Positions 5,149-12,650 are shown, numbered from the stretch's first letter. The stretch is 12,690 nt of DNA from Thermoanaerobaculia bacterium (GCA_044226625.1 JBGAGQ010000112.1:1-12690); one strand, 5' to 3'. Notes: generated by a model not told the origin, from the sequence alone. A program made the numbers and translations.

Positions 5149-5182
5149 GGCTTGGCCGAGTCCTGATCCCCCGCATCCCGCG

Positions 5183-5191
5183 TGATAAAAT
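5183..5191 (+). promoter_or_regulatory. Candidate extended -10 promoter for the conflict operon
   Basis: TG-A-TAAAAT in an AT-rich patch about 90 nt upstream of ATG 5283. No convincing -35. Confidence 0.35.
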
Positions 5192-5282
5192 TTGCGCGAT
5201 CCCTAGATTGATGCGGCGGCGCGTCGGTTTCCTCTGAGCCACTCACGACCCGAGGCGTCGGCCGGTCCCGGAGGGCGGGTCG

Positions 5283-5558
5283 ATGGCCAAGGTTGCGCTG
5301 GCGGACATGATCGAGGAGCTTCGCAACGAGCTTCAGATTGCGATGGAGAAGGGCGAAGGGAGGAGCCTGCGCTTCGAGCTGGGGGAGATCACGCTCGAGG
5401 CGGAGGTGGCGGTCGAGGCGGAGGCGAGGGCCGGTCTCAAGTTCTGGGTGTTCAGCGGAGTTGAGGCTGCGGCAAACCAGGGGAAAACGCAGAAGATCAC
5501 TCTGCGGCTCCTGCCACGCGGCGAGGACGGTCAACCCATCACGAATCTTTCGAGGTAG
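5283..5558 (+). CDS. Trypco2-like (trypsin co-occurring domain 2) small protein
   Basis: 91 aa; LADMIEELRNEL...LRFELGEITLEAEV...AGLKFWV...QKITLRLLP matches the Trypco2 pattern as I recall it; lies directly upstream of a trypsin-like gene; SD GGAGGG. Confidence 0.85.
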   Translation: MAKVALADMIEELRNELQIAMEKGEGRSLRFELGEITLEAEVAVEAEARAGLKFWVFSGVEAAANQGKTQKITLRLLPRGEDGQPITNLSR

Positions 5559-5561
5559 GAG

Positions 5562-7085
5562 GTGGAGCTGGCGCGTCTGGTCAGGATCACCCGCGATGGC
5601 TCAGCAGTGAACGGCGGCACCGGCTATCTGCTCGCCACGCACCTTGTTCTCACCGCGCGACACGTCGTCGAAGGCGCTGAACGGATCGAGGTTCGTTACA
5701 ACGGAGCCGATGGCAAGGAAGCGACGGCGGAACCGATCGAGCCGCCCTATTTCGGCGAAGGGGATCTCGATCTGGCGGTGCTTCGCGTGGCGACGGGCCT
5801 TGACCTTTCTGCGGTGCCTCTCGGTCCCGAGCGATTTATCGGTGATCGCCCTTGGCGTTCGAAGGGGTGGGCGCGCGCGGCCCGAGGGGTCGCGGCGGAG
5901 GAGGCGAGCCAGGCTGATCGGATGAGCGCGCTCGCCGGGTCCGCTTATGAATTCTCCGCGACGGCGACGACTTTCGAGCTGGGAGTCGACGACCCGCCGA
6001 CCGAGCTCGATTGGTGGAAGGGTGCATCCGGCGCTCCTGTGTTCATTGCCGACCGTTCCGGTGAAAGGCTGGTCGGCGTGATCGCACAGGGGGATCAGCC
6101 CTTCGACGGTCGGCGGCTGCGCGCCGTGCCGCTCGCGGCGGTCTGGGGCGATCGACGATTCCTTGCCGCGATCGACCACGACAAAGCGCAGGAAGAACGT
6201 CGCAAGCGACGGAAAGAGGAGCTGATCTCTGCTCTCGAAAACCGCCTCAGCCTGCACCACGAGGCCGCTTGGACGATCGCCAACGAGCATCCTCTTTGGC
6301 GAGAGGCGCTGGATCAGAAAGAGAGCAGCGGATACCTCGCCCTGGCGAAGGCCCTTTGCGAATCGCGCTCCTGGCGCGAAACGATCGAGCTGCTCGACCG
6401 TGCGCACCTTCGGATGGTCGAGGAAGAAGAACGTGATGCTTCCAGGACCTCGCATGAACGCTCGCACTCCGAGGAGATCGTCCGGATCTTGGAGCGCGTC
6501 CTGCCGGAGGTGTATTACTCGACGGTGAGCCAAGCGGCACCGAAAGGGGAGGGGAGCTTCATCGAGCTTCCGGTCGAGACCGCGACGCTCGCCGAGATCG
6601 CGATGGCCGCGATCGACGGGCGGTGTCTAGCTTTGGAAGAGGTCCGCAAGAAGAAGGTCTATCCGAAGAGCACTTTTCAGATCGACCCGAAGCACTCGAA
6701 GGAGCGGAAAGGGTTCGACTTCACGGGGGCTGCTGCGCTCGGCGGCTGGCTGGAGGTCATCGCGCGATGGATCGGCCTCGATCCGGACGACATCGAGACA
6801 CTGCGCCACCCGAATCGCCTGGACGAGTTGGCGCGACGCATTGATAGTGAGATCGAAACCGACGTCCGGCGCGGAGAGCCTCGACGCTATTTCGTCTATC
6901 CGAGCGACTTCGCCGAACGAAACCAGCTATTCCTTCGACAGCTCGGAAGCGCGCTTCACTCCCTCCGATTCGTCCAACTGACCGGCAAGAGCCTCACCGA
7001 CGAGCGCGACGCCTGCGAGCCGCTGCGCGCAATCCTCTTCCGTTCCTATGAGCACCGCAACAAGAAAGGCAGGCGCCGATCGTGA
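5562..7085 (+). CDS. Trypsin-like serine protease fused to an uncharacterised ~300-aa C-terminal domain (third component of a MoxR/vWA ternary system)
   Basis: Intact triad motifs GTGYLL...LTARHVV (His), DLDLAVL (Asp), WKGASGAPVF (Ser); no signal peptide; starts 3 nt after the Trypco2 stop; its TGA overlaps the MoxR GTG (GTGA). Confidence 0.85.
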   Translation: MELARLVRITRDGSAVNGGTGYLLATHLVLTARHVVEGAERIEVRYNGADGKEATAEPIEPPYFGEGDLDLAVLRVATGLDLSAVPLGPERFIGDRPWRSKGWARAARGVAAEEASQADRMSALAGSAYEFSATATTFELGVDDPPTELDWWKGASGAPVFIADRSGERLVGVIAQGDQPFDGRRLRAVPLAAVWGDRRFLAAIDHDKAQEERRKRRKEELISALENRLSLHHEAAWTIANEHPLWREALDQKESSGYLALAKALCESRSWRETIELLDRAHLRMVEEEERDASRTSHERSHSEEIVRILERVLPEVYYSTVSQAAPKGEGSFIELPVETATLAEIAMAAIDGRCLALEEVRKKKVYPKSTFQIDPKHSKERKGFDFTGAAALGGWLEVIARWIGLDPDDIETLRHPNRLDELARRIDSEIETDVRRGEPRRYFVYPSDFAERNQLFLRQLGSALHSLRFVQLTGKSLTDERDACEPLRAILFRSYEHRNKKGRRRS

Positions 7086-8053
7086 GATTCCTCGACGTCC
7101 GACCGGGTGAAGCCCGGACGTTGCCGGCCCATGGGGCGCTTTCGGAGGCCGTCCACGTCTTCGACGAGCGGATGATTGCCGCGATCGACGCGGCGCTCGC
7201 CGCCGACCGACCCCTTCTCGTGCGCGGCGAGCCGGGTACGGGAAAGAGCCAGCTCGCGCGCGCCGCGGCGGTCGCGCTTGGGCGCGTGTTCCTCCCGTTC
7301 ACGGTCGATGCCCGAACCGAATCGCGCGACCTCCTCTACTCGGTCGACACCGTCGCTCGGCTCGCTGAATCGCAGATCGTCGGCTTTTTGAAGAACTCGC
7401 AACCCGCGCTCGACGTCCGGGCGCACCTCGCCGAGAAGAATTTCACCTCGCCGGGCCCTCTCTGGTGGGTTTTCGACTGGCAGGGCGCGACCGATCAGGC
7501 GACCGTGGCGAGATCCGCGACGCCCTGGTCGCCGCAGGGCTGGACACCCGAGAACGGCGCGGTCCTCCTTCTCGACGAGATCGACAAAGCGGATCCGGCG
7601 GTTCCGAACGGCCTGCTCGAAGCGCTCGGCCTCGGCCAGTTCCCGACCCCCTGGGGCGATACGGTTTCGAGCCAGTCCGCGGTGCCTCCTCTCGTCGTAA
7701 TCACGACGAACGAAGAGCGGTCGTTGCCCGACGCGTTCGTCCGCCGATGCCTCGTCCTCCAACTCGGCTGGCCGATTCGACGCGACGAGCTGATCGCCGC
7801 CCTGATCGCGCGAGGCCGAGCCCACTTTCCCGCCGCCGCCGAGAATCTCTTGGCGACCGCCGCCGGAATGGTCGCCGACGATCGGGAGGCGATTCTCGAT
7901 CGGCACCTGAACCCGCCCGGCGGAGCCGAATATCTCGATCTTCTTCGCGCTGTGATCCGGCGCCACCCCGACGATCCCGAGGCCCAGAAGGCAGGGCTCG
8001 ATCGCATCCGCTCCTTCGCGCTGCGCAAGCATCCGGAGGAGAGGGAGGGTTGA
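7082..8053 (+). CDS. MoxR-family AAA+ ATPase
   Basis: RPLLVRGEPGTGKS (Walker A), VLLLDEIDKAD (Walker B), PNGLLE, VVITTNEERSLPDAFVRRC (sensor 1/Arg finger). DLLYSVDTVARL and GPLWWVFDW are typical of conflict-system MoxRs. 323 aa. Confidence 0.93.
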   Translation: MRFLDVRPGEARTLPAHGALSEAVHVFDERMIAAIDAALAADRPLLVRGEPGTGKSQLARAAAVALGRVFLPFTVDARTESRDLLYSVDTVARLAESQIVGFLKNSQPALDVRAHLAEKNFTSPGPLWWVFDWQGATDQATVARSATPWSPQGWTPENGAVLLLDEIDKADPAVPNGLLEALGLGQFPTPWGDTVSSQSAVPPLVVITTNEERSLPDAFVRRCLVLQLGWPIRRDELIAALIARGRAHFPAAAENLLATAAGMVADDREAILDRHLNPPGGAEYLDLLRAVIRRHPDDPEAQKAGLDRIRSFALRKHPEEREG

Positions 8054-10773
8054 GCCTCTCGATGGGGCCCCGGCCCGCGGCCTCCGCGGCAAGCCGCGCC
8101 GACCTCTATCGGGCGCTCGTCGAAGGAGGCGAGAAGGCGCTCGCCGCCATGGCGGAGCTGCTCGGCTATGAGGAACGCCCCTCGCTCGGAACCGGCACGC
8201 CCCGCCAGCAGGAGCCTCGCGAGCCCGAGCCGACCGCCGAAAAGCCGGCACCGGAAAAGCCGGTAGCTCGCCCGCCCACAACCTTCTGGTGTTTGGAGGA
8301 GGTCGAGCACCTCACGCCCGCTCCGGCTCCGGCGCGCCCCGCCGTCGCACCGATCGGATTGGAAGGGATCGGCCTCCTCGAAGGCCGCCCGCCGCGGACA
8401 TCACCGATCGTTTCCGATGCGCGACTTTGGGCGGCACTCCGCCGCCGCCTCGGCTCGACCTCCAAGAGCCGCCAGGTCGACGTCCGGGCGCTCGCGGATT
8501 CATGGAGCCGCGGCAGAATCCGGCGCGAGATCCCATATCGAGCGCTGCCTGCCTGGACCTCTCGTGTGCTGGTCCTCGTCGACGGAAGCGCGCACCTCGG
8601 CCCTGTGCGCGACGACCAGCGGCGGTTGATCTCCGAGCTGAAGCTGCGGCTCGGAAAATCCGCGGTGCGGTCGGTGCGATTCACCGAGGGAATGGAGCGG
8701 CCCTGGAAAGACGGGCGAGAGCGCCGAAGCGAGCCGCCGTTCGAAGCCCGCACTCCAGCGATCGCCTTGAGTGACCTCGGCTTTGTCGGGGGTTTGGACC
8801 GACGTGCCTTCTGGGTGAGCGTAGCGCTCTCCGCCGAACGGGCGGACGCGCCGCTCGCTGCGCTGGTGCCGGTCGGGGCCGATCGCTGGGAGAGGAGCGC
8901 TGGTCATGCGTGGAACGCGCTTCCTTGGGAGCGGCCCGAACGTGCGCCGGAGCCGGGCCCTGCACGCGCCGAAGACCAGCGACGAGAGCGCGCCGAGCGC
9001 CTGCTTAGCCTCCTCGCATTCGCCTCGCGCATTGAGCCCGGGCTCCTTCGCTCGGCGCGCCGCCTGCTTTCGCCGCAGGAAGCGGACCAGGGCACCGAGC
9101 TCGACGCGTGGAATCTCGCCGGTGTGGCCGGAGGTTTCGCTTCGGCGGCCGTGGTTTTCTCAGCCGAGCTGCGACACAAGCTGGAAGAGCGTTTTCGGGC
9201 GGAAGATCCGGACCGAAAGGGAAAGCTATTGGCCCTGCAACGCTCCTGGCGTCGGGGCCAACCGAAAGAGATCTGGCTCGACGAGGTGCTCGCTCTCGAC
9301 GCGGCCGGAGACCTTCCGGCCGGGGTCTTGCGGAACGAAGAGGTCGAAGCGGCCCGTGCTCTCTGGGAGCGGATCGGCGAAACCCTGGAGAGCGGGGCCG
9401 CATCCCAGGTGGTCGCCGAAGGGCTGAGCCGTTATGTCCGTGAAGCGGTCGGCGAGCACCTTCCGAAAACGGCCTGGGACGACGAAAGTTGGTCCCACCT
9501 TCTTTCCCGCGCCTGGAAGCACGCCTGGAAAGGCCCCGGCCCCCCGCCCCTTCCCCCCGGGGTCGGCTCCGGCGTGCTCGACCTGCCCCGCGGCGAGGCG
9601 CGCCGTGGCGCCTTGTGGCAGGTGGCTGGCGATCTCGTCTGGAGCCCTTCGGGCGCGTCCCTTCCTGCGGGGAGCCCGCTCGCGGCGATGGAGTCCTCGG
9701 ACGGACTGGTCACCCTCGCCGGGGAATGCTCTGGCTGGTCAACTCCCCGACCGCTCGGCGAAGGGCAGGCGCTGCCGCGACGCACCGGGGAACTCCTCGT
9801 CCTCACCGATCGCACGCGTGCGACGCTCCGCCGGATCGTGCGCCCGGCTTGGGCGCAGTCGGTCGGCAGAGACCGCCACGGCCTCTGGGCCACTCTTGCG
9901 GTGGGCGAGGCTCGGCAAAAGATGCGGTGGATTGCGCCTGGGCGGTTCTGGATGGGCTCGCCAGAAGACGAGCCGGGAAGGTATTACTGGGAGCAGCTCC
10001 TTCATCTGGTGGAGATCAAGAACGGCTTTTGGCTCGGCGAGACCCCGTGTACTCAGGCACTTTGGCTTGCGGTGATGGGGGGCGGAAACCCGAGCGAATT
10101 TCAGACACCTGACCGCCCGGTCGAAAGGGTGAGCTGGGACGACTGTCAGGAGTTCCTCGGAACGCTCCGGCAAGACAAGGCCGGAGGCGAAATCTGGCGG
10201 CTTCCGACCGAGCAGGAGTGGGAGTACGCCTGCCGAGCGGGGACGGAGACGGCGACCTATGAGGGGTCGATCGAGATCAAAGGGGAACACAACGCACCGG
10301 TCCTCGGCCCCATCGCCTGGTACGGTGGAAACAGCGGCGTGGACGATCTGGAGAACGGTTGGGATTCGAGCGACTGGACTGAGAAGGAGGAGAAACACAC
10401 CCGAGCCGCGACTCACCCCGTCGCCTTGAAACGCGCGAACCCCTGGGGTCTCTACGACATGCTCGGCAACGTCTGGGAGTGGTGCCACGACTCGGTCGAT
10501 CCTGAAATGACACCAAATCCAGAGGGCCCGTACCGGGTGTTTCGTGGCGGCTCGTGGTACGAGCTCGCCCGGAACGTTCGCGCGGCCTACCGGTACTGGT
10601 ACCTCCCGAGCGACCGCGACGACAGCTTCGGCTTCCGCCTTGCCCGAGGTCAGGAATCTGCGCTCCGGCAAGGGGCGGAGCCCAGGGGCGCGGAGCGCCC
10701 CACCCGGGGCCTGCCGAAGTGCGGGACGCGCCGGTCAGGCCCAGGGCCGCGGCCGGAGGCCGCGGCCGAATGA
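8050..10773 (+). CDS. vWA-like domain protein with C-terminal FGE-sulfatase (SUMF1-like, C-type lectin fold) domain; putative DGR target 1
   Basis: Likely start TTG 8050 (TTGA overlap with the MoxR stop, after GGAGGAGAGGGAGGG) or ATG 8062; the extension to 7465 overlaps MoxR. vWA-like core VDVRALADSWSRG...VLVLVDGSAHLGPVRDD...IALSDLG. FGE domain MRWIAPGRFWMGSP, TPCTQALW, PVERVSWDDC, RLPTEQEWEYACRAG, NPWGLYDMLGNVWEWC, RVFRGGSW...FGFRLAR. About 907 aa. Confidence 0.88.
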   Translation: MSLSMGPRPAASAASRADLYRALVEGGEKALAAMAELLGYEERPSLGTGTPRQQEPREPEPTAEKPAPEKPVARPPTTFWCLEEVEHLTPAPAPARPAVAPIGLEGIGLLEGRPPRTSPIVSDARLWAALRRRLGSTSKSRQVDVRALADSWSRGRIRREIPYRALPAWTSRVLVLVDGSAHLGPVRDDQRRLISELKLRLGKSAVRSVRFTEGMERPWKDGRERRSEPPFEARTPAIALSDLGFVGGLDRRAFWVSVALSAERADAPLAALVPVGADRWERSAGHAWNALPWERPERAPEPGPARAEDQRRERAERLLSLLAFASRIEPGLLRSARRLLSPQEADQGTELDAWNLAGVAGGFASAAVVFSAELRHKLEERFRAEDPDRKGKLLALQRSWRRGQPKEIWLDEVLALDAAGDLPAGVLRNEEVEAARALWERIGETLESGAASQVVAEGLSRYVREAVGEHLPKTAWDDESWSHLLSRAWKHAWKGPGPPPLPPGVGSGVLDLPRGEARRGALWQVAGDLVWSPSGASLPAGSPLAAMESSDGLVTLAGECSGWSTPRPLGEGQALPRRTGELLVLTDRTRATLRRIVRPAWAQSVGRDRHGLWATLAVGEARQKMRWIAPGRFWMGSPEDEPGRYYWEQLLHLVEIKNGFWLGETPCTQALWLAVMGGGNPSEFQTPDRPVERVSWDDCQEFLGTLRQDKAGGEIWRLPTEQEWEYACRAGTETATYEGSIEIKGEHNAPVLGPIAWYGGNSGVDDLENGWDSSDWTEKEEKHTRAATHPVALKRANPWGLYDMLGNVWEWCHDSVDPEMTPNPEGPYRVFRGGSWYELARNVRAAYRYWYLPSDRDDSFGFRLARGQESALRQGAEPRGAERPTRGLPKCGTRRSGPGPRPEAAAE
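10525..10668 (+). other. Putative DGR variable region VR1 (10525-10629) plus invariant IMH-like block (10630-10668)
   Basis: Aligns without gaps to 11756-11899; mismatches concentrate at positions 1-2 of NNC codons and mostly involve A; followed by 39 identical nt GGCTTCCGCCTTGCCCGAGGTCAGGAATCTGCGCTCCGG. Confidence 0.8.
10673..10767 (+). promoter_or_regulatory. Array of four GGA-triloop hairpins downstream of VR1 (candidate DGR homing cis-element)
   Basis: GGGC-GGA-GCCC (10673-83), GGGGCGC-GGA-GCGCCCC (10685-701), GTGCG-GGA-CGCGC (10719-31, one T-G pair), GGCCGCGGCC-GGA-GGCCGCGGCC (10745-67). Confidence 0.7.
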
Positions 10774-10865
10774 AATTGGCATTTTTCGCGGTGCCGGCGG
10801 AAGGCGGAATGGAGGTCGCCGCCGACGTGAACCGATTCCTTGGCGCACACCGCGTCGTCGCGATC
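10770..10865 (+). pseudogene. Truncated 5' fragment resembling the DGR-associated HRDC accessory protein
   Basis: ATGA overlap with the upstream stop. MKLAFFAVPAEGGMEVAADVNRFLGAHRVVAI resembles the N-terminus (FF.IP...LN.FL..HRV) of HRDC proteins encoded beside DGR RTs, from memory. Similarity ends at CTAG 10866; the frame then runs through a palindromic repeat to TGA 11042 with no HRDC domain. Confidence 0.6.
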
Positions 10866-10900
10866 CTAGGGGTCCCTCAGAAGAAAGGGTCGTGCGAGGT

Positions 10901-11012
10901 GGCTTTTCCTGGGCTCGCCAGGCTCCAGCCTGGCATCGATCGCTGCATCGAGCTGGCTGTGTGCTCGAAGCCAAAAGCGCCACGCTGGAGCGTGGCGAGC
11001 CCAGGAAAGGCC
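10901..11012. repeat. Inverted pair of REP-like palindromes (REP doublet)
   Basis: 10901-10934 and 10979-11012 are 34-bp inverted repeats with 3 mismatches; each arm has an internal hairpin (GCCAGGCT-CC-AGCCTGGC; GCCACGCT-GG-AGCGTGGC); 44-nt spacer. Confidence 0.75.
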
Positions 11013-11038
11013 CCCGATCTTTCCGCGGAGCGCCTTTC

Positions 11039-11902
11039 GTGACCTTCCGCTCCCACCCGCTCGAAGACGGTTGCCCTCCTGCCTGGGCCTCCGGCTGGGG
11101 GGAGGACGAATTCGGGATCTTCGCCGAGTTTTCTGTCGGGGAAGCGTCGCAGCGGATGCGTTGGATCGAGGCGGGGGATTTCATGATGGGCTCGCCAAAG
11201 GACAAACCGAGGCGGTGGGGTGACGAAGGACCGCAACACCGCGAAGCGATCGAAGAAGGGTTTTGGCTCGCGGACACCCCCTGTACCCAAGCGATCTGGG
11301 AGGTGGTGACGGGTTCGAACCCGAGCCGCTTCAAGACGCCCGATCGGCCGGTCGAGCAGGTGAGCTGGGAGGACTGCCAGGAATTCTGCCGCAAGCTCGC
11401 CGAGAGGATCGGCGGCCCGGGGTGGCGTCTCCCTTCCGAGGCGGAGTGGGAATACGCCTGCCGGGCGGGGGCCGAAACCGCAACCTACGCGGGGCCGATC
11501 GAGCTGAAAGGCGAAGCCAACGCCCCGGTGCTCGGCCCGATCGCCTGGTATGGCGGGAACTCAGGGGATGGCTACGATCTCGAAGAGTTCGAGGACTCCT
11601 CCGATTGGCCCGAGAAAGAAATCGCACACATGCGGGCCGGGACGCGGCGGGTGAAGACCAAGGAACCGAACGCCTGGGGCCTCTACGACACGCTCGGCAA
11701 CGTCTGGGAGTGGTGCGAGGATTTCTGGTCTGCCGGGTATGACGCCGAACGCAAGGGCCCGTCCCGGGTGATCCGTGGCGGCTCATGGAGCACGCTCGCC
11801 CGGCTCGTTCGCGCGGCCTACCGGGGCTGGTACCACCCGGGCGTCCGCTTCGACGACCTCGGCTTCCGCCTTGCCCGAGGTCAGGAATCTGCGCTCCGGT
11901 AG
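11039..11902 (+). CDS. Stand-alone FGE-sulfatase (C-type lectin fold) protein; putative DGR target 2
   Basis: GTG 11039 with GGAG 8 nt upstream; MTFRSHPLEDGCPPAWASGWGEDEFGIFAEF...MRWIEAGDFMMGSP...RLPSEAEWEYACRAG...NAWGLYDTLGNVWEWC...RVIRGGSW...LGFRLARGQESALR*. 287 aa; paralog of the C-terminal part of 8050-10773. Confidence 0.9.
   Translation: MTFRSHPLEDGCPPAWASGWGEDEFGIFAEFSVGEASQRMRWIEAGDFMMGSPKDKPRRWGDEGPQHREAIEEGFWLADTPCTQAIWEVVTGSNPSRFKTPDRPVEQVSWEDCQEFCRKLAERIGGPGWRLPSEAEWEYACRAGAETATYAGPIELKGEANAPVLGPIAWYGGNSGDGYDLEEFEDSSDWPEKEIAHMRAGTRRVKTKEPNAWGLYDTLGNVWEWCEDFWSAGYDAERKGPSRVIRGGSWSTLARLVRAAYRGWYHPGVRFDDLGFRLARGQESALR
11756..11899 (+). other. Putative DGR variable region VR2 (11756-11860) plus invariant IMH-like block (11861-11899)
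   Basis: Second copy of 10525-10668 at offset 1231 nt; same mismatch pattern as VR1. Confidence 0.8.
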
Positions 11903-11903
11903 G

Positions 11904-11998
11904 GGGCGGAGCCCAAGGGTGCGGAGCGCCCCACCGGGGCCGGCAAGGCGCGGGACGCGCCGGCCTGGCCCCGGATCGCGGCCGGAGGCCGCGATCCG
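11904..11998 (+). promoter_or_regulatory. Array of four GGA-triloop hairpins downstream of VR2
   Basis: GGGC-GGA-GCCC (11904-14), GGGTGC-GGA-GCGCCC (11917-31, one T-G pair), GGCGCG-GGA-CGCGCC (11947-61), CGGATCGCGGCC-GGA-GGCCGCGATCCG (11972-98). Confidence 0.7.
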
Positions 11999-12181
11999 AA
12001 TTTGAGAATCCGGCCGGCCGGGACCTCGATCGCAACCGCCGGGACCTTGGTCCGAGCCGCCCGGACTGCAGTCGCGACGACCGGGACAGGGTCCGGAAGC
12101 CGGCGGCCGGGGAGGAACTCCATGCCCGTTGGGAAGCGCTCCCCAAAACTCCGCAAGCGCACTTTTCTCAGGGCGGAACCT

Positions 12182-12249
12182 TCGCCTTTTCTCCTTCCCA
12201 GAAGGAGAACTTTGGGCTGAGTTCTCCTTCTCAGAAGGAGAAAGGGCGA
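12182..12249. repeat. Nested palindrome: 30-bp inverted repeat whose arms are themselves hairpins
   Basis: Arms 12182-12211 and 12220-12249 (3 mismatches, 8-nt loop); internal TTCTCCTTC-CCA-GAAGGAGAA (12189-209) and TTCTCCTTC-TCA-GAAGGAGAA (12222-242). Confidence 0.75.
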
Positions 12250-12267: not shown

Positions 12268-12357
12268 ATGGGCCGGGCCTTCAGCCCTTGCCGCCTCGTC
12301 GGCGCCTCGATTCCTGGGGCTTCACCCCAGGCTATTATGGGACGCGCCTTTGGCGCT
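12268..12357. repeat. REP/BIME-like composite palindromic unit
   Basis: Degenerate direct repeats ATGGGCCGGGCCTTCAGCCCT (12268-88) and ATGGGACGCGCCTTTGGCGCT (12337-57), each a small hairpin, flank CCTGGGG-CTTCA-CCCCAGG (12313-31). Confidence 0.6.
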
Positions 12358-12650
12358 GGCCGCCTCAGATCCTCTCTTGACGTACTAAGGTTGCGCCCCT
12401 TTTTCACCGCTCCGCAGCAGAAGCCCGGTGAGAAGTTCGGGCTAGCGTCGATTGGCGCCAGAGGAACATTTCGGCCGGCTGGGTTCGAGAGCGCCGCGAC
12501 CTGTGGCGCTCGGGGTCGTAACACGGAAGATAAGCGCCAAAGGCGCGATCGATAATAGATGCTATGGAGGGTCGAGGCCCCCGGGTGAGTGAGGTTGTGG
12601 GCCGGCTGGATAATTCTCTGGAACCACCATCGCCAAACGGAGGCAACCAG

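Follow-up and report, generated by a model that had tools for sequence, protein, structure and literature searches.

A probable degenerate retroelement-target locus within a putative MoxR-linked conflict operon of a Thermoanaerobaculia bacterium

A 12,690-bp contig from a Thermoanaerobaculia bacterium (JBGAGQ010000112.1 of assembly GCA_044226625.1), called the window throughout and taken at its full length, carries a putative defence operon of an already described kind. We consider it probable that this operon is a degenerate target locus of a diversity-generating retroelement (DGR): an island-like, MoxR-linked 'ternary' conflict operon of 6.8 kb with two lectin-type sensors of the DGR-target class, from which the retroelement cassette has been lost and in which the sensors are probably now fixed. 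The window is contig C128 of an assembly in 133 contigs, with 97.94% completeness and 5.53% contamination. Where labels are needed, G denotes a genome (G000 being the window's own), C a contig of the same assembly and L a related locus that was fetched for comparison. The 13 Acidobacteriota loci whose gene order was compared are L008–L010 and L107–L116; those from other phyla were taken from the best 80 MoxR matches of the scan.

Six genes or open reading frames (ORFs) occupy the + strand from 5283 to 11902, in the order Trypco2, trypsin effector, MoxR, long sensor, stub ORF and short sensor (Table 1), both sensors ending in a domain of the formylglycine-generating enzyme (FGE) family. Trypco2 lies 3 nt upstream of the trypsin gene, and the remaining junctions, read from the sequence, are the overlaps GTGA (7082), TTGA (8050), ATGA (10770) and GTGA (11039). 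These junctions, together with the Pfam matches, confirm the domain calls and the co-oriented, overlapping gene arrangement put forward in an earlier interpretation that used the nucleotide sequence alone (the sequence-only reading).

The evidence that the sensors were DGR targets lies at the 3' ends of their genes. Over the last ~130 nt of both FGE genes and the ~110 nt that follow on the 3' side, the two sequences agree at 87%, compared with 71–80% in the rest of the lectin domains. Across 34 codons of variable sequence, the variable regions of the two genes, VR1 and VR2, differ at codon positions 1, 2 and 3 in 8, 8 and 1 cases, respectively, compared with 70, 67 and 122 in the other 241 aligned FGE codons of the two genes; the 16 differences at positions 1 and 2 cluster in 11 codons, while the third positions are nearly identical. 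Homogenised silent sites combined with scattered replacement sites are characteristic of a pair of targets that one adenine-rich template has written, and judged by this codon pattern both regions carry the imprint of adenine mutagenesis from a single shared template. The proposal that both FGE genes end in DGR-type variable regions is thus upheld. Close homologues found in other assemblies share the scaffold and vary at these residues too. Simple duplication of paralogues, or gene conversion among them, might instead account for the 3'-end likeness, with no retroelement involved; the FGE genes are indeed tandem paralogues, and the likeness runs ~110 nt past the stop codon, beyond the reach of the template repeat (TR) in relatives. 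Conversion, however, would also have erased the 16 differences at the first two codon positions, the alike block begins just where TR homology begins in the relatives, and a remnant of a DGR accessory gene lies between the two FGE genes. We regard this origin as very improbable indeed.

Among solved structures, a profile of the lectin family finds Treponema denticola TvpA (2y3c), a DGR-diversified lectin, as its best relative with E 5e-52, true FGE enzymes following at ~1e-31. TvpA is a surface lipoprotein and is not known to be encoded in a MoxR operon. A catalytic FGE is expected to carry a cysteine pair in its C-terminal segment; the VR segments of both window sensors contain no cysteine, and NCBIfam enzyme models score far below their cut-offs on the window FGE proteins. 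The short sensor and the lectin domain of its long counterpart share 63% identity. The conserved flanks that follow the variable regions fold well as DNA: the VR1 flank reaches −50.9 kcal/mol (z −3.54, with 0 of 200 shuffles as good) and the VR2 flank −49.1 kcal/mol (z −3.68), and the same GC-rich hairpin motif with GGA loops also follows the variable regions of relatives. According to the accessible text of Guo 2011, the Bordetella phage DGR needs hairpins downstream of VR with stems of 7–10 bp and 4-nt GRNA loops, 4–34 bp away; the window hairpins are similar to these without being identical, having 3-nt GGA loops and a 7-bp stem ~35 nt past the VR end. The last hairpin of the VR1 flank (10739–10767), a GC palindrome with a GGA loop, is 83–86% like a palindromic repeat over 29 nt. 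Sequences of this sort recur every ~81 nt on C35 (1–508), in clusters on C133 (59232–60347), and also on C93 and C58; the repeat on C35 and C133 may represent a CRISPR-like array or else a cluster of REP-like elements.

Some related loci retain the retroelement that the window lacks. Among 21 related loci, three have an intact reverse transcriptase (RT) and two have RT fragments. In L009, L110 and L113 the space between the FGE genes is filled by an HRDC accessory gene (~155 residues), an RT gene (~335 residues, with the YMDD motif) and a template repeat, and the intact accessory proteins match HRDC (PF00570) with E values of 1e-16 to 1e-18. Nine TR/VR pairs from these three loci and the degraded L115 have cores of 128–148 nt with 15–21 mismatches at adenine sites and 0–2 elsewhere; the core-finder penalises non-adenine mismatches, so that its core lengths lean towards a DGR reading. 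The adenine-specific mismatches mark this as a true family of DGR targets, and the association with RT and TR that the sequence-only reading had asked of homologous loci is present. The HRDC accessory gene places the family with the Treponema-type architecture, the architecture C of Wu et al. 2018 (PMC5758913, as far as its accessible text describes it), in which such a gene stands in place of Avd. In G176 one VR matched itself only, and G515 is without a TR, the third match there being another FGE gene. The TR of L009 was also considered as a template for L010, a second locus of the same genome, and was ruled out because the cores were only 10–41 nt long.

In the window this cassette is gone. 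The first 32 codons of the stub ORF align by tblastn with residues 1–32 of the accessory proteins, at 53% identity to L110 and 44% to L113. Past codon 32 the frame continues to 11042 through ~125 nt of an unrelated palindromic repeat, which occupies the site of the accessory–RT–TR cassette of the relatives. Copies of the repeat are found on C58 (85%) and C13 (76%), and C17 and C60 have portions of it. Unlike HRDC-type DGRs, the window keeps only a 32-codon accessory stub. A search of the window's own assembly for RVT_1 gave 0 matches, although the same search was positive in 5 of 5 relatives tested; tblastn with the DGR RTs of L009, L110 and L113 found no match in the assembly, and the accessory query found the stub and one HRDC domain elsewhere, nothing else. 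In a bin short of completeness, the lack of an RT is not conclusive. Likewise, a search of the assembly for a template repeat, with words as short as 7 nt, returned VR1 and VR2 matching each other only, and no third VR-like sequence. We conclude from the surviving sequence that the DGR cassette has been deleted here and that the DGR link is historical in this genome. The idea that the sensors are currently hypermutated by a DGR, which formed part of the sequence-only reading, is therefore not supported: the cassette is reduced to a stub and the assembly holds neither RT nor TR.

The congener G515 has the same stub-plus-repeat arrangement and a further internal deletion. With the arrangement common to both, the loss appears to predate the divergence of these species. 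Accessory-gene stubs are also present in L109, L111, L014 and L015, and L112 gives a weak 13-residue match. Cassette loss is seen cleanly in the window, and its scar is datable.

Table 1. Positions of the genes, domains and repeat features of the operon in the window
Feature	Position	Strand	Match or basis
Trypco2-domain protein, 91 residues, first gene of the operon	5283..5558	+	PF19631, E 8e-22
Effector, 507 residues: Trypsin_2 followed by ~300 residues with no Pfam family	5562..7085	+	PF13365, E 2.4e-11
Trypsin-like peptidase, N-terminal part of the effector	~5562-6160	+	
Carrier module, ~300 residues, C-terminal part of the effector	6162-7082	+	no Pfam family
MoxR-like AAA+ ATPase, 323 residues	7082..8053	+	AAA_5 PF07728, E 1.8e-13; weak partial bpMoxR match
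Long sensor, 907 residues	8050..10773	+	FGE-sulfatase PF03781, E 1e-40 at residues 624-866
N-terminal extension of the long sensor, 620 residues	8050-9909	+	no Pfam family
Long sensor: probable vWA domain, CoxE-type and divergent	~8380-9084	+	lead only: profile and structure-neighbour comparisons
TvpA-like FGE/C-type-lectin domain of the long sensor	9919-10647	+	
VR1, 3' end of the long-sensor lectin domain (approximate bounds)	10534..10650	+	
Conserved 3' flank of VR1, GC-rich hairpins with GGA loops, translated as C-terminal tail	10651..10770	+	
Stub ORF, 90 codons	10770-11042	+	
Stub proper, first 32 codons of an HRDC-type DGR accessory gene	10770..10865	+	tblastn
Palindromic multi-copy repeat element	10890..11015	none	self inverted match
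Short sensor, FGE/C-type lectin only, 287 residues	11039..11902	+	PF03781, E 1.4e-43
VR2, variable region of the short sensor (approximate bounds)	11765..11881	+	
Conserved 3' flank of VR2, same hairpins as the VR1 flank	11882..12000	+	

With the cassette absent in cis, the two sensor specificities would most likely be fixed alleles. A degenerate target may also still be rewritten in trans by a complete DGR elsewhere in the genome, missed in assembly or binning, and several observations weigh on that side, against fixed sensors. VR1 and VR2 differ at the third position in only 3 of 44 codons, compared with 9–10 of 44 between either window region and VR2 of G515, even though the scar is shared with that species and the two VR2 regions form an orthologous pair. 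This silent-site identity hints at rewriting in trans after the loss; the contrast of 3 with 10 rests on small numbers. VR1 of G515 was itself written from another, L115-like, type of template. In the accessible text of Doré 2024 (PMC10907252), degenerate loci are grouped, by RT phylogeny and TR–VR match, with one complete locus per class. Furthermore, the bin is fragmented, its contigs break at repeats, and given its 133 contigs, its contamination and the multi-copy transposase at the end of the window, an RT/TR locus could have gone unassembled. The searches described above tell the other way, since neither RVT_1, nor the three DGR RTs, nor any TR-like DNA was found in the assembly and the accessory query led only to the stub and a single HRDC domain. 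The Logan contigs, assembled from the likely source run and representing one sample, contain no TR-like form, although rare variants are invisible in contigs; they show only a second strain, at a depth of 4.7 versus 9.6–14, which lacks the stub. On balance we rate frozen sensors well above sensors served in trans, and judge continued rewriting of this locus rather unlikely.

In the second strain (X1 record 2; window 10461–11146), the 329-nt stretch with the stub and the palindromic repeat is replaced by 56 nt. Its difference in VR1 was considered as DGR variation and rejected, since the strain also differs outside VR1, upstream of it. At the contig end (12529–12690) lie the upstream region and the first 13 codons (39 nt) of an IS110-family transposase, with copies on C81 (97.5%; L132 369–1877, PF01548 and PF02371) and C106 (89.6%, ending at the same point). 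The assembly breaks here because the contig runs into this multi-copy IS110-type transposase gene.

The RT is intact in only three of the Acidobacteriota loci, and accessory-gene stubs are left in at least six loci, the weak match in L112 excluded. We tentatively raise the possibility, somewhat against the odds, that the retroelement is transient across the whole family, its cassettes being repeatedly deleted so that the sensors become hard-wired 'germline' receptors or are serviced only in trans. Were this so, the silent-site identity of the variable regions after the shared scar would mean that rewriting continued after the local cassette had been lost.

The effector gene product consists of a trypsin-like peptidase and a large C-terminal module. 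Residues H34, D70 and S156 do not vary among the 45 trypsin-type members aligned, and the catalytic triad of the effector is, as far as alignment can tell, intact. A profile of the C-terminal module retrieved 597 cluster representatives among 1.84 billion proteins. When 94 of these were scanned, 52 carried trypsin, 10 TIR, 4 CHAT, 2 SIR2 and 3 other domains, and 23 no family. As the module bears such varied heads, we take it to be a carrier for interchangeable death effectors; it would then represent a large effector-carrier family that is uncovered by any Pfam model. Other comparisons reached less far: hhalign of trypsin-type against TIR-type effector proteins was uninformative (E 0.36), of 10 non-trypsin proteins, a local hidden Markov model built on the C-terminal module recovered only that of L011, and a word-based homologue search with the C-terminal part of the effector found 6 proteins only. 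As a carrier, the module is analogous to the VMAP-C third component of vWA–MoxR–VMAP systems. VMAP-C itself (PF20028) is absent from the window effector by Pfam, from the 94 carrier representatives at E ≤ 1e-4 and from the window in the six-frame genome search; strict membership of the VMAP class therefore fails, which counts against a full identification with those systems.

Downstream of the effector, the MoxR motifs GEPGTGKS and LLDEIDKAD (Walker A and B) are invariant across 4 aligned orthologues. A scan for promoters and terminators stayed at chance level over the window (0 promoters; 7 terminators versus 5.9 expected), and PADLOC returned weak protease and ATPase matches only, naming no system.

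The sequence-only reading had labelled the long sensor a vWA-like–FGE fusion. The FGE half of that label is secure from the Pfam match, and all of the proteins that have the long sensor's N-terminal region in common (47/47) carry FGE; the vWA half stands only as a lead. Two hhalign comparisons of the N-terminal region with VWA_CoxE alignments share one register, in which VLVDxS falls on LLxDVGGSMD and ALSDLG on FVGDA. In the Atlas model of the homologue P0016, residues 95–340 have VWA_CoxE clusters as neighbours at TM 0.50–0.51, and a cyanobacterial FGE+VWA_CoxE cluster at TM 0.57; a structure search with the whole protein was dominated by its FGE domain. Several results tell against the assignment. 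A Pfam scan of 18 N-terminal segments of the long-sensor family gave no match at E ≤ 0.1, the two hhalign runs have E values of 0.13 and 0.027 with very low probabilities, and the TM values of 0.50–0.57 belong to P0016, which is 50% identical, and not to the window protein. Taking the shared register together with the modelled neighbours, we suggest that the N-terminal extension probably contains a vWA domain of CoxE type, divergent in sequence and degenerate at its metal site. If it does, the MoxR-linked DGR-target loci fold back into the vWA–MoxR scheme.

A further 13 loci from Acidobacteriota preserve the order Trypco2, trypsin, MoxR, long FGE, FGE, so that the conservation of gene order supposed in the sequence-only reading is borne out; L114, L115 and L116 are cut or degraded. 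Trypco2 homologues occupy the equivalent position in 11 other loci; a tblastn match is missing in L110 and L009, the Trypco2 of L009 being found by Pfam. The names of the homologue sources include Thermoanaerobaculia and Acidobacteriota bacterium, which, with the Acido-Lenti-1 RNA motif downstream of the operon, makes an acidobacterial host probable. Six-frame searches detected the operon in 2 of 400 further genomes from the phylum; within the class 15 of 400 had it, among them 2 of the 3 additional genomes that belong to its genus. It is a rare system with a patchy distribution. Its setting also changes between close relatives: homology to G515 is limited to window positions 5177–12009, and the flanks differ from those of both operon-bearing congeners, G515 and G575, in which orthologues of the tricorn-type protease encoded, with a HutD gene, upstream of the window operon lie on other contigs. 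An empty island site was sought beside the tricorn protease orthologues of three congeners and was not found. Directly 3' of the operon is an inverted repeat of ~68 nt (12182–12249). Its counterpart in G515 (L107 2404–2459), to which it aligns either way round, lies ~330 nt upstream of the operon there, and the window repeat may be a boundary repeat of the island.

Beyond the phylum, 14 of the best 80 MoxR matches had more than MoxR at the locus, and 8 of the 14 keep MoxR, long FGE and FGE. The upstream gene in these 8 loci encodes TIR or SEFIR in L012, L014 and L017 (E < 1e-4), with weaker matches to TIR in L022 and L031 and to trypsin in L013; in L011 and L015 it has no family. With L016 counted as well, TIR or SEFIR takes the place of trypsin in L012, L014, L016 and L017. 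Some of the distant loci are built differently. In L012, from a Thiothrix bin, the stretch between the FGE genes that houses the DGR cassette in other loci (14249–15062) is taken up by a small family-less ORF and a gene for an HNH endonuclease (PF01844, E 1.8e-14), and the long sensor (10953–14183) has a TIR domain between its N-terminal region and FGE. The sensor protein of L024 (11850–16043) contains TIR and CHAT and no FGE, with a caspase–TCAD2 gene nearby.

The other 66 of these 80 loci matched the query set by MoxR only, and VWA_CoxE was present in 7 of 12 scanned downstream ORFs of such MoxR-only loci. These counts would suit a MoxR/vWA chaperone module that regulates a protease in a cellular role, for example in the envelope or in signalling, and that has nothing to do with defence. 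Such a role sits poorly with a distribution that is patchy even within the genus, with genomic contexts that differ between congeners, with a carrier module fused to trypsin, TIR, CHAT or SIR2, and with the linkage to hypervariable lectin domains, and we think it very unlikely. Against a defence function it must be set that no experimental test of the function of any member was found in the literature searched.

The architecture and mechanism, which the sequence-only reading held to be uncharacterised, have in fact been described, as the accessible texts of two papers make clear. Kaur, Burroughs, Iyer and Aravind 2020 (PMC7159879) define vWA–MoxR–VMAP systems with Trypco beside trypsin VMAPs and with vWA–FGS fusions linked to DGRs, the FGS fusions occurring mainly in cyanobacterial and gammaproteobacterial systems. 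The window operon is like these VMAP systems in its MoxR, its third component with an N-terminal trypsin, its Trypco partner gene and its swappable effectors, and in that the protein at the vWA position carries a fused TvpA-like FGS domain with a link to DGRs; it is unlike them in that its effector has no Pfam VMAP-C and its vWA domain is undetected by Pfam. Doré 2024 describes a long target with MoxR immediately upstream of it and with an N-terminal extension in which no domain is predicted, together with a short target of CLec only. The neighbours are Trypco1/2 with trypsin or TIR and a peptidase without canonical VMAP, and in degenerate loci MITE-like repeats (miniature inverted-repeat transposable elements) degrade parts of the DGR. 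The window locus is like the MoxR-associated DGR target loci of RT clade 5A, and like the DGR 8 and DGR 9 loci of Thiohalocapsa PB-PSB1, in its MoxR, its long target with a domain-less extension and its short target. It is also like that paper's loci in the Trypco2 and trypsin-like peptidase without canonical VMAP beside the targets, and like its degenerate loci in lacking RT and an intact accessory gene, with a repeat replacing DGR parts. It differs in its Acidobacteriota host, the string 'Acidobacteri' being absent from the main text of that paper, and in that this assembly yielded no complete DGR locus.

The chain from lectin sensor through vWA and MoxR to release of the protease, as the sequence-only reading drew it, coincides with the model printed in Doré 2024, in which a lectin-bearing target senses an invader and signals via MoxR to an effector; it is thus a published proposal. 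That the trypsin would act on Trypco2, as the sequence-only reading also suggested, is a conjecture. Applied to the window, the lectin tips would bind a foreign ligand, and the N-terminal part of the long sensor, probably a CoxE-type vWA domain, would couple binding to MoxR. MoxR could then remodel the carrier module of the effector so that the trypsin domain is switched on, leading to cell death or arrest, with Trypco2 as a possible partner, inhibitor or adaptor of the protease. Systems of this class are candidates for a prokaryotic immune system with antibody-like, retroelement-diversified sensors, and the window extends the class to Acidobacteriota. New details are the likely cryptic CoxE-type vWA domain and the large, Pfam-less effector-carrier module; in other respects the locus is an ordinary member of a class whose architecture and sensor–MoxR–effector model are already published. 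An RT-bearing relative would be better suited to experiments than the window locus.

Two further features of the window lie outside the operon. After it, at 12313–12357 (+), is an Acido-Lenti-1 RNA motif (RF01687; 39.4 bits, gathering score 37), situated inside a repeat of ~90 nt (12268–12360) that has copies on at least 10 other contigs and a very high depth in the sample. The tricorn-type protease gene contains, close to its 5' end, a 99-nt tandem duplication (1831–2028), in frame and 98% identical, which repeats 33 residues and could be real or an artefact of assembly.

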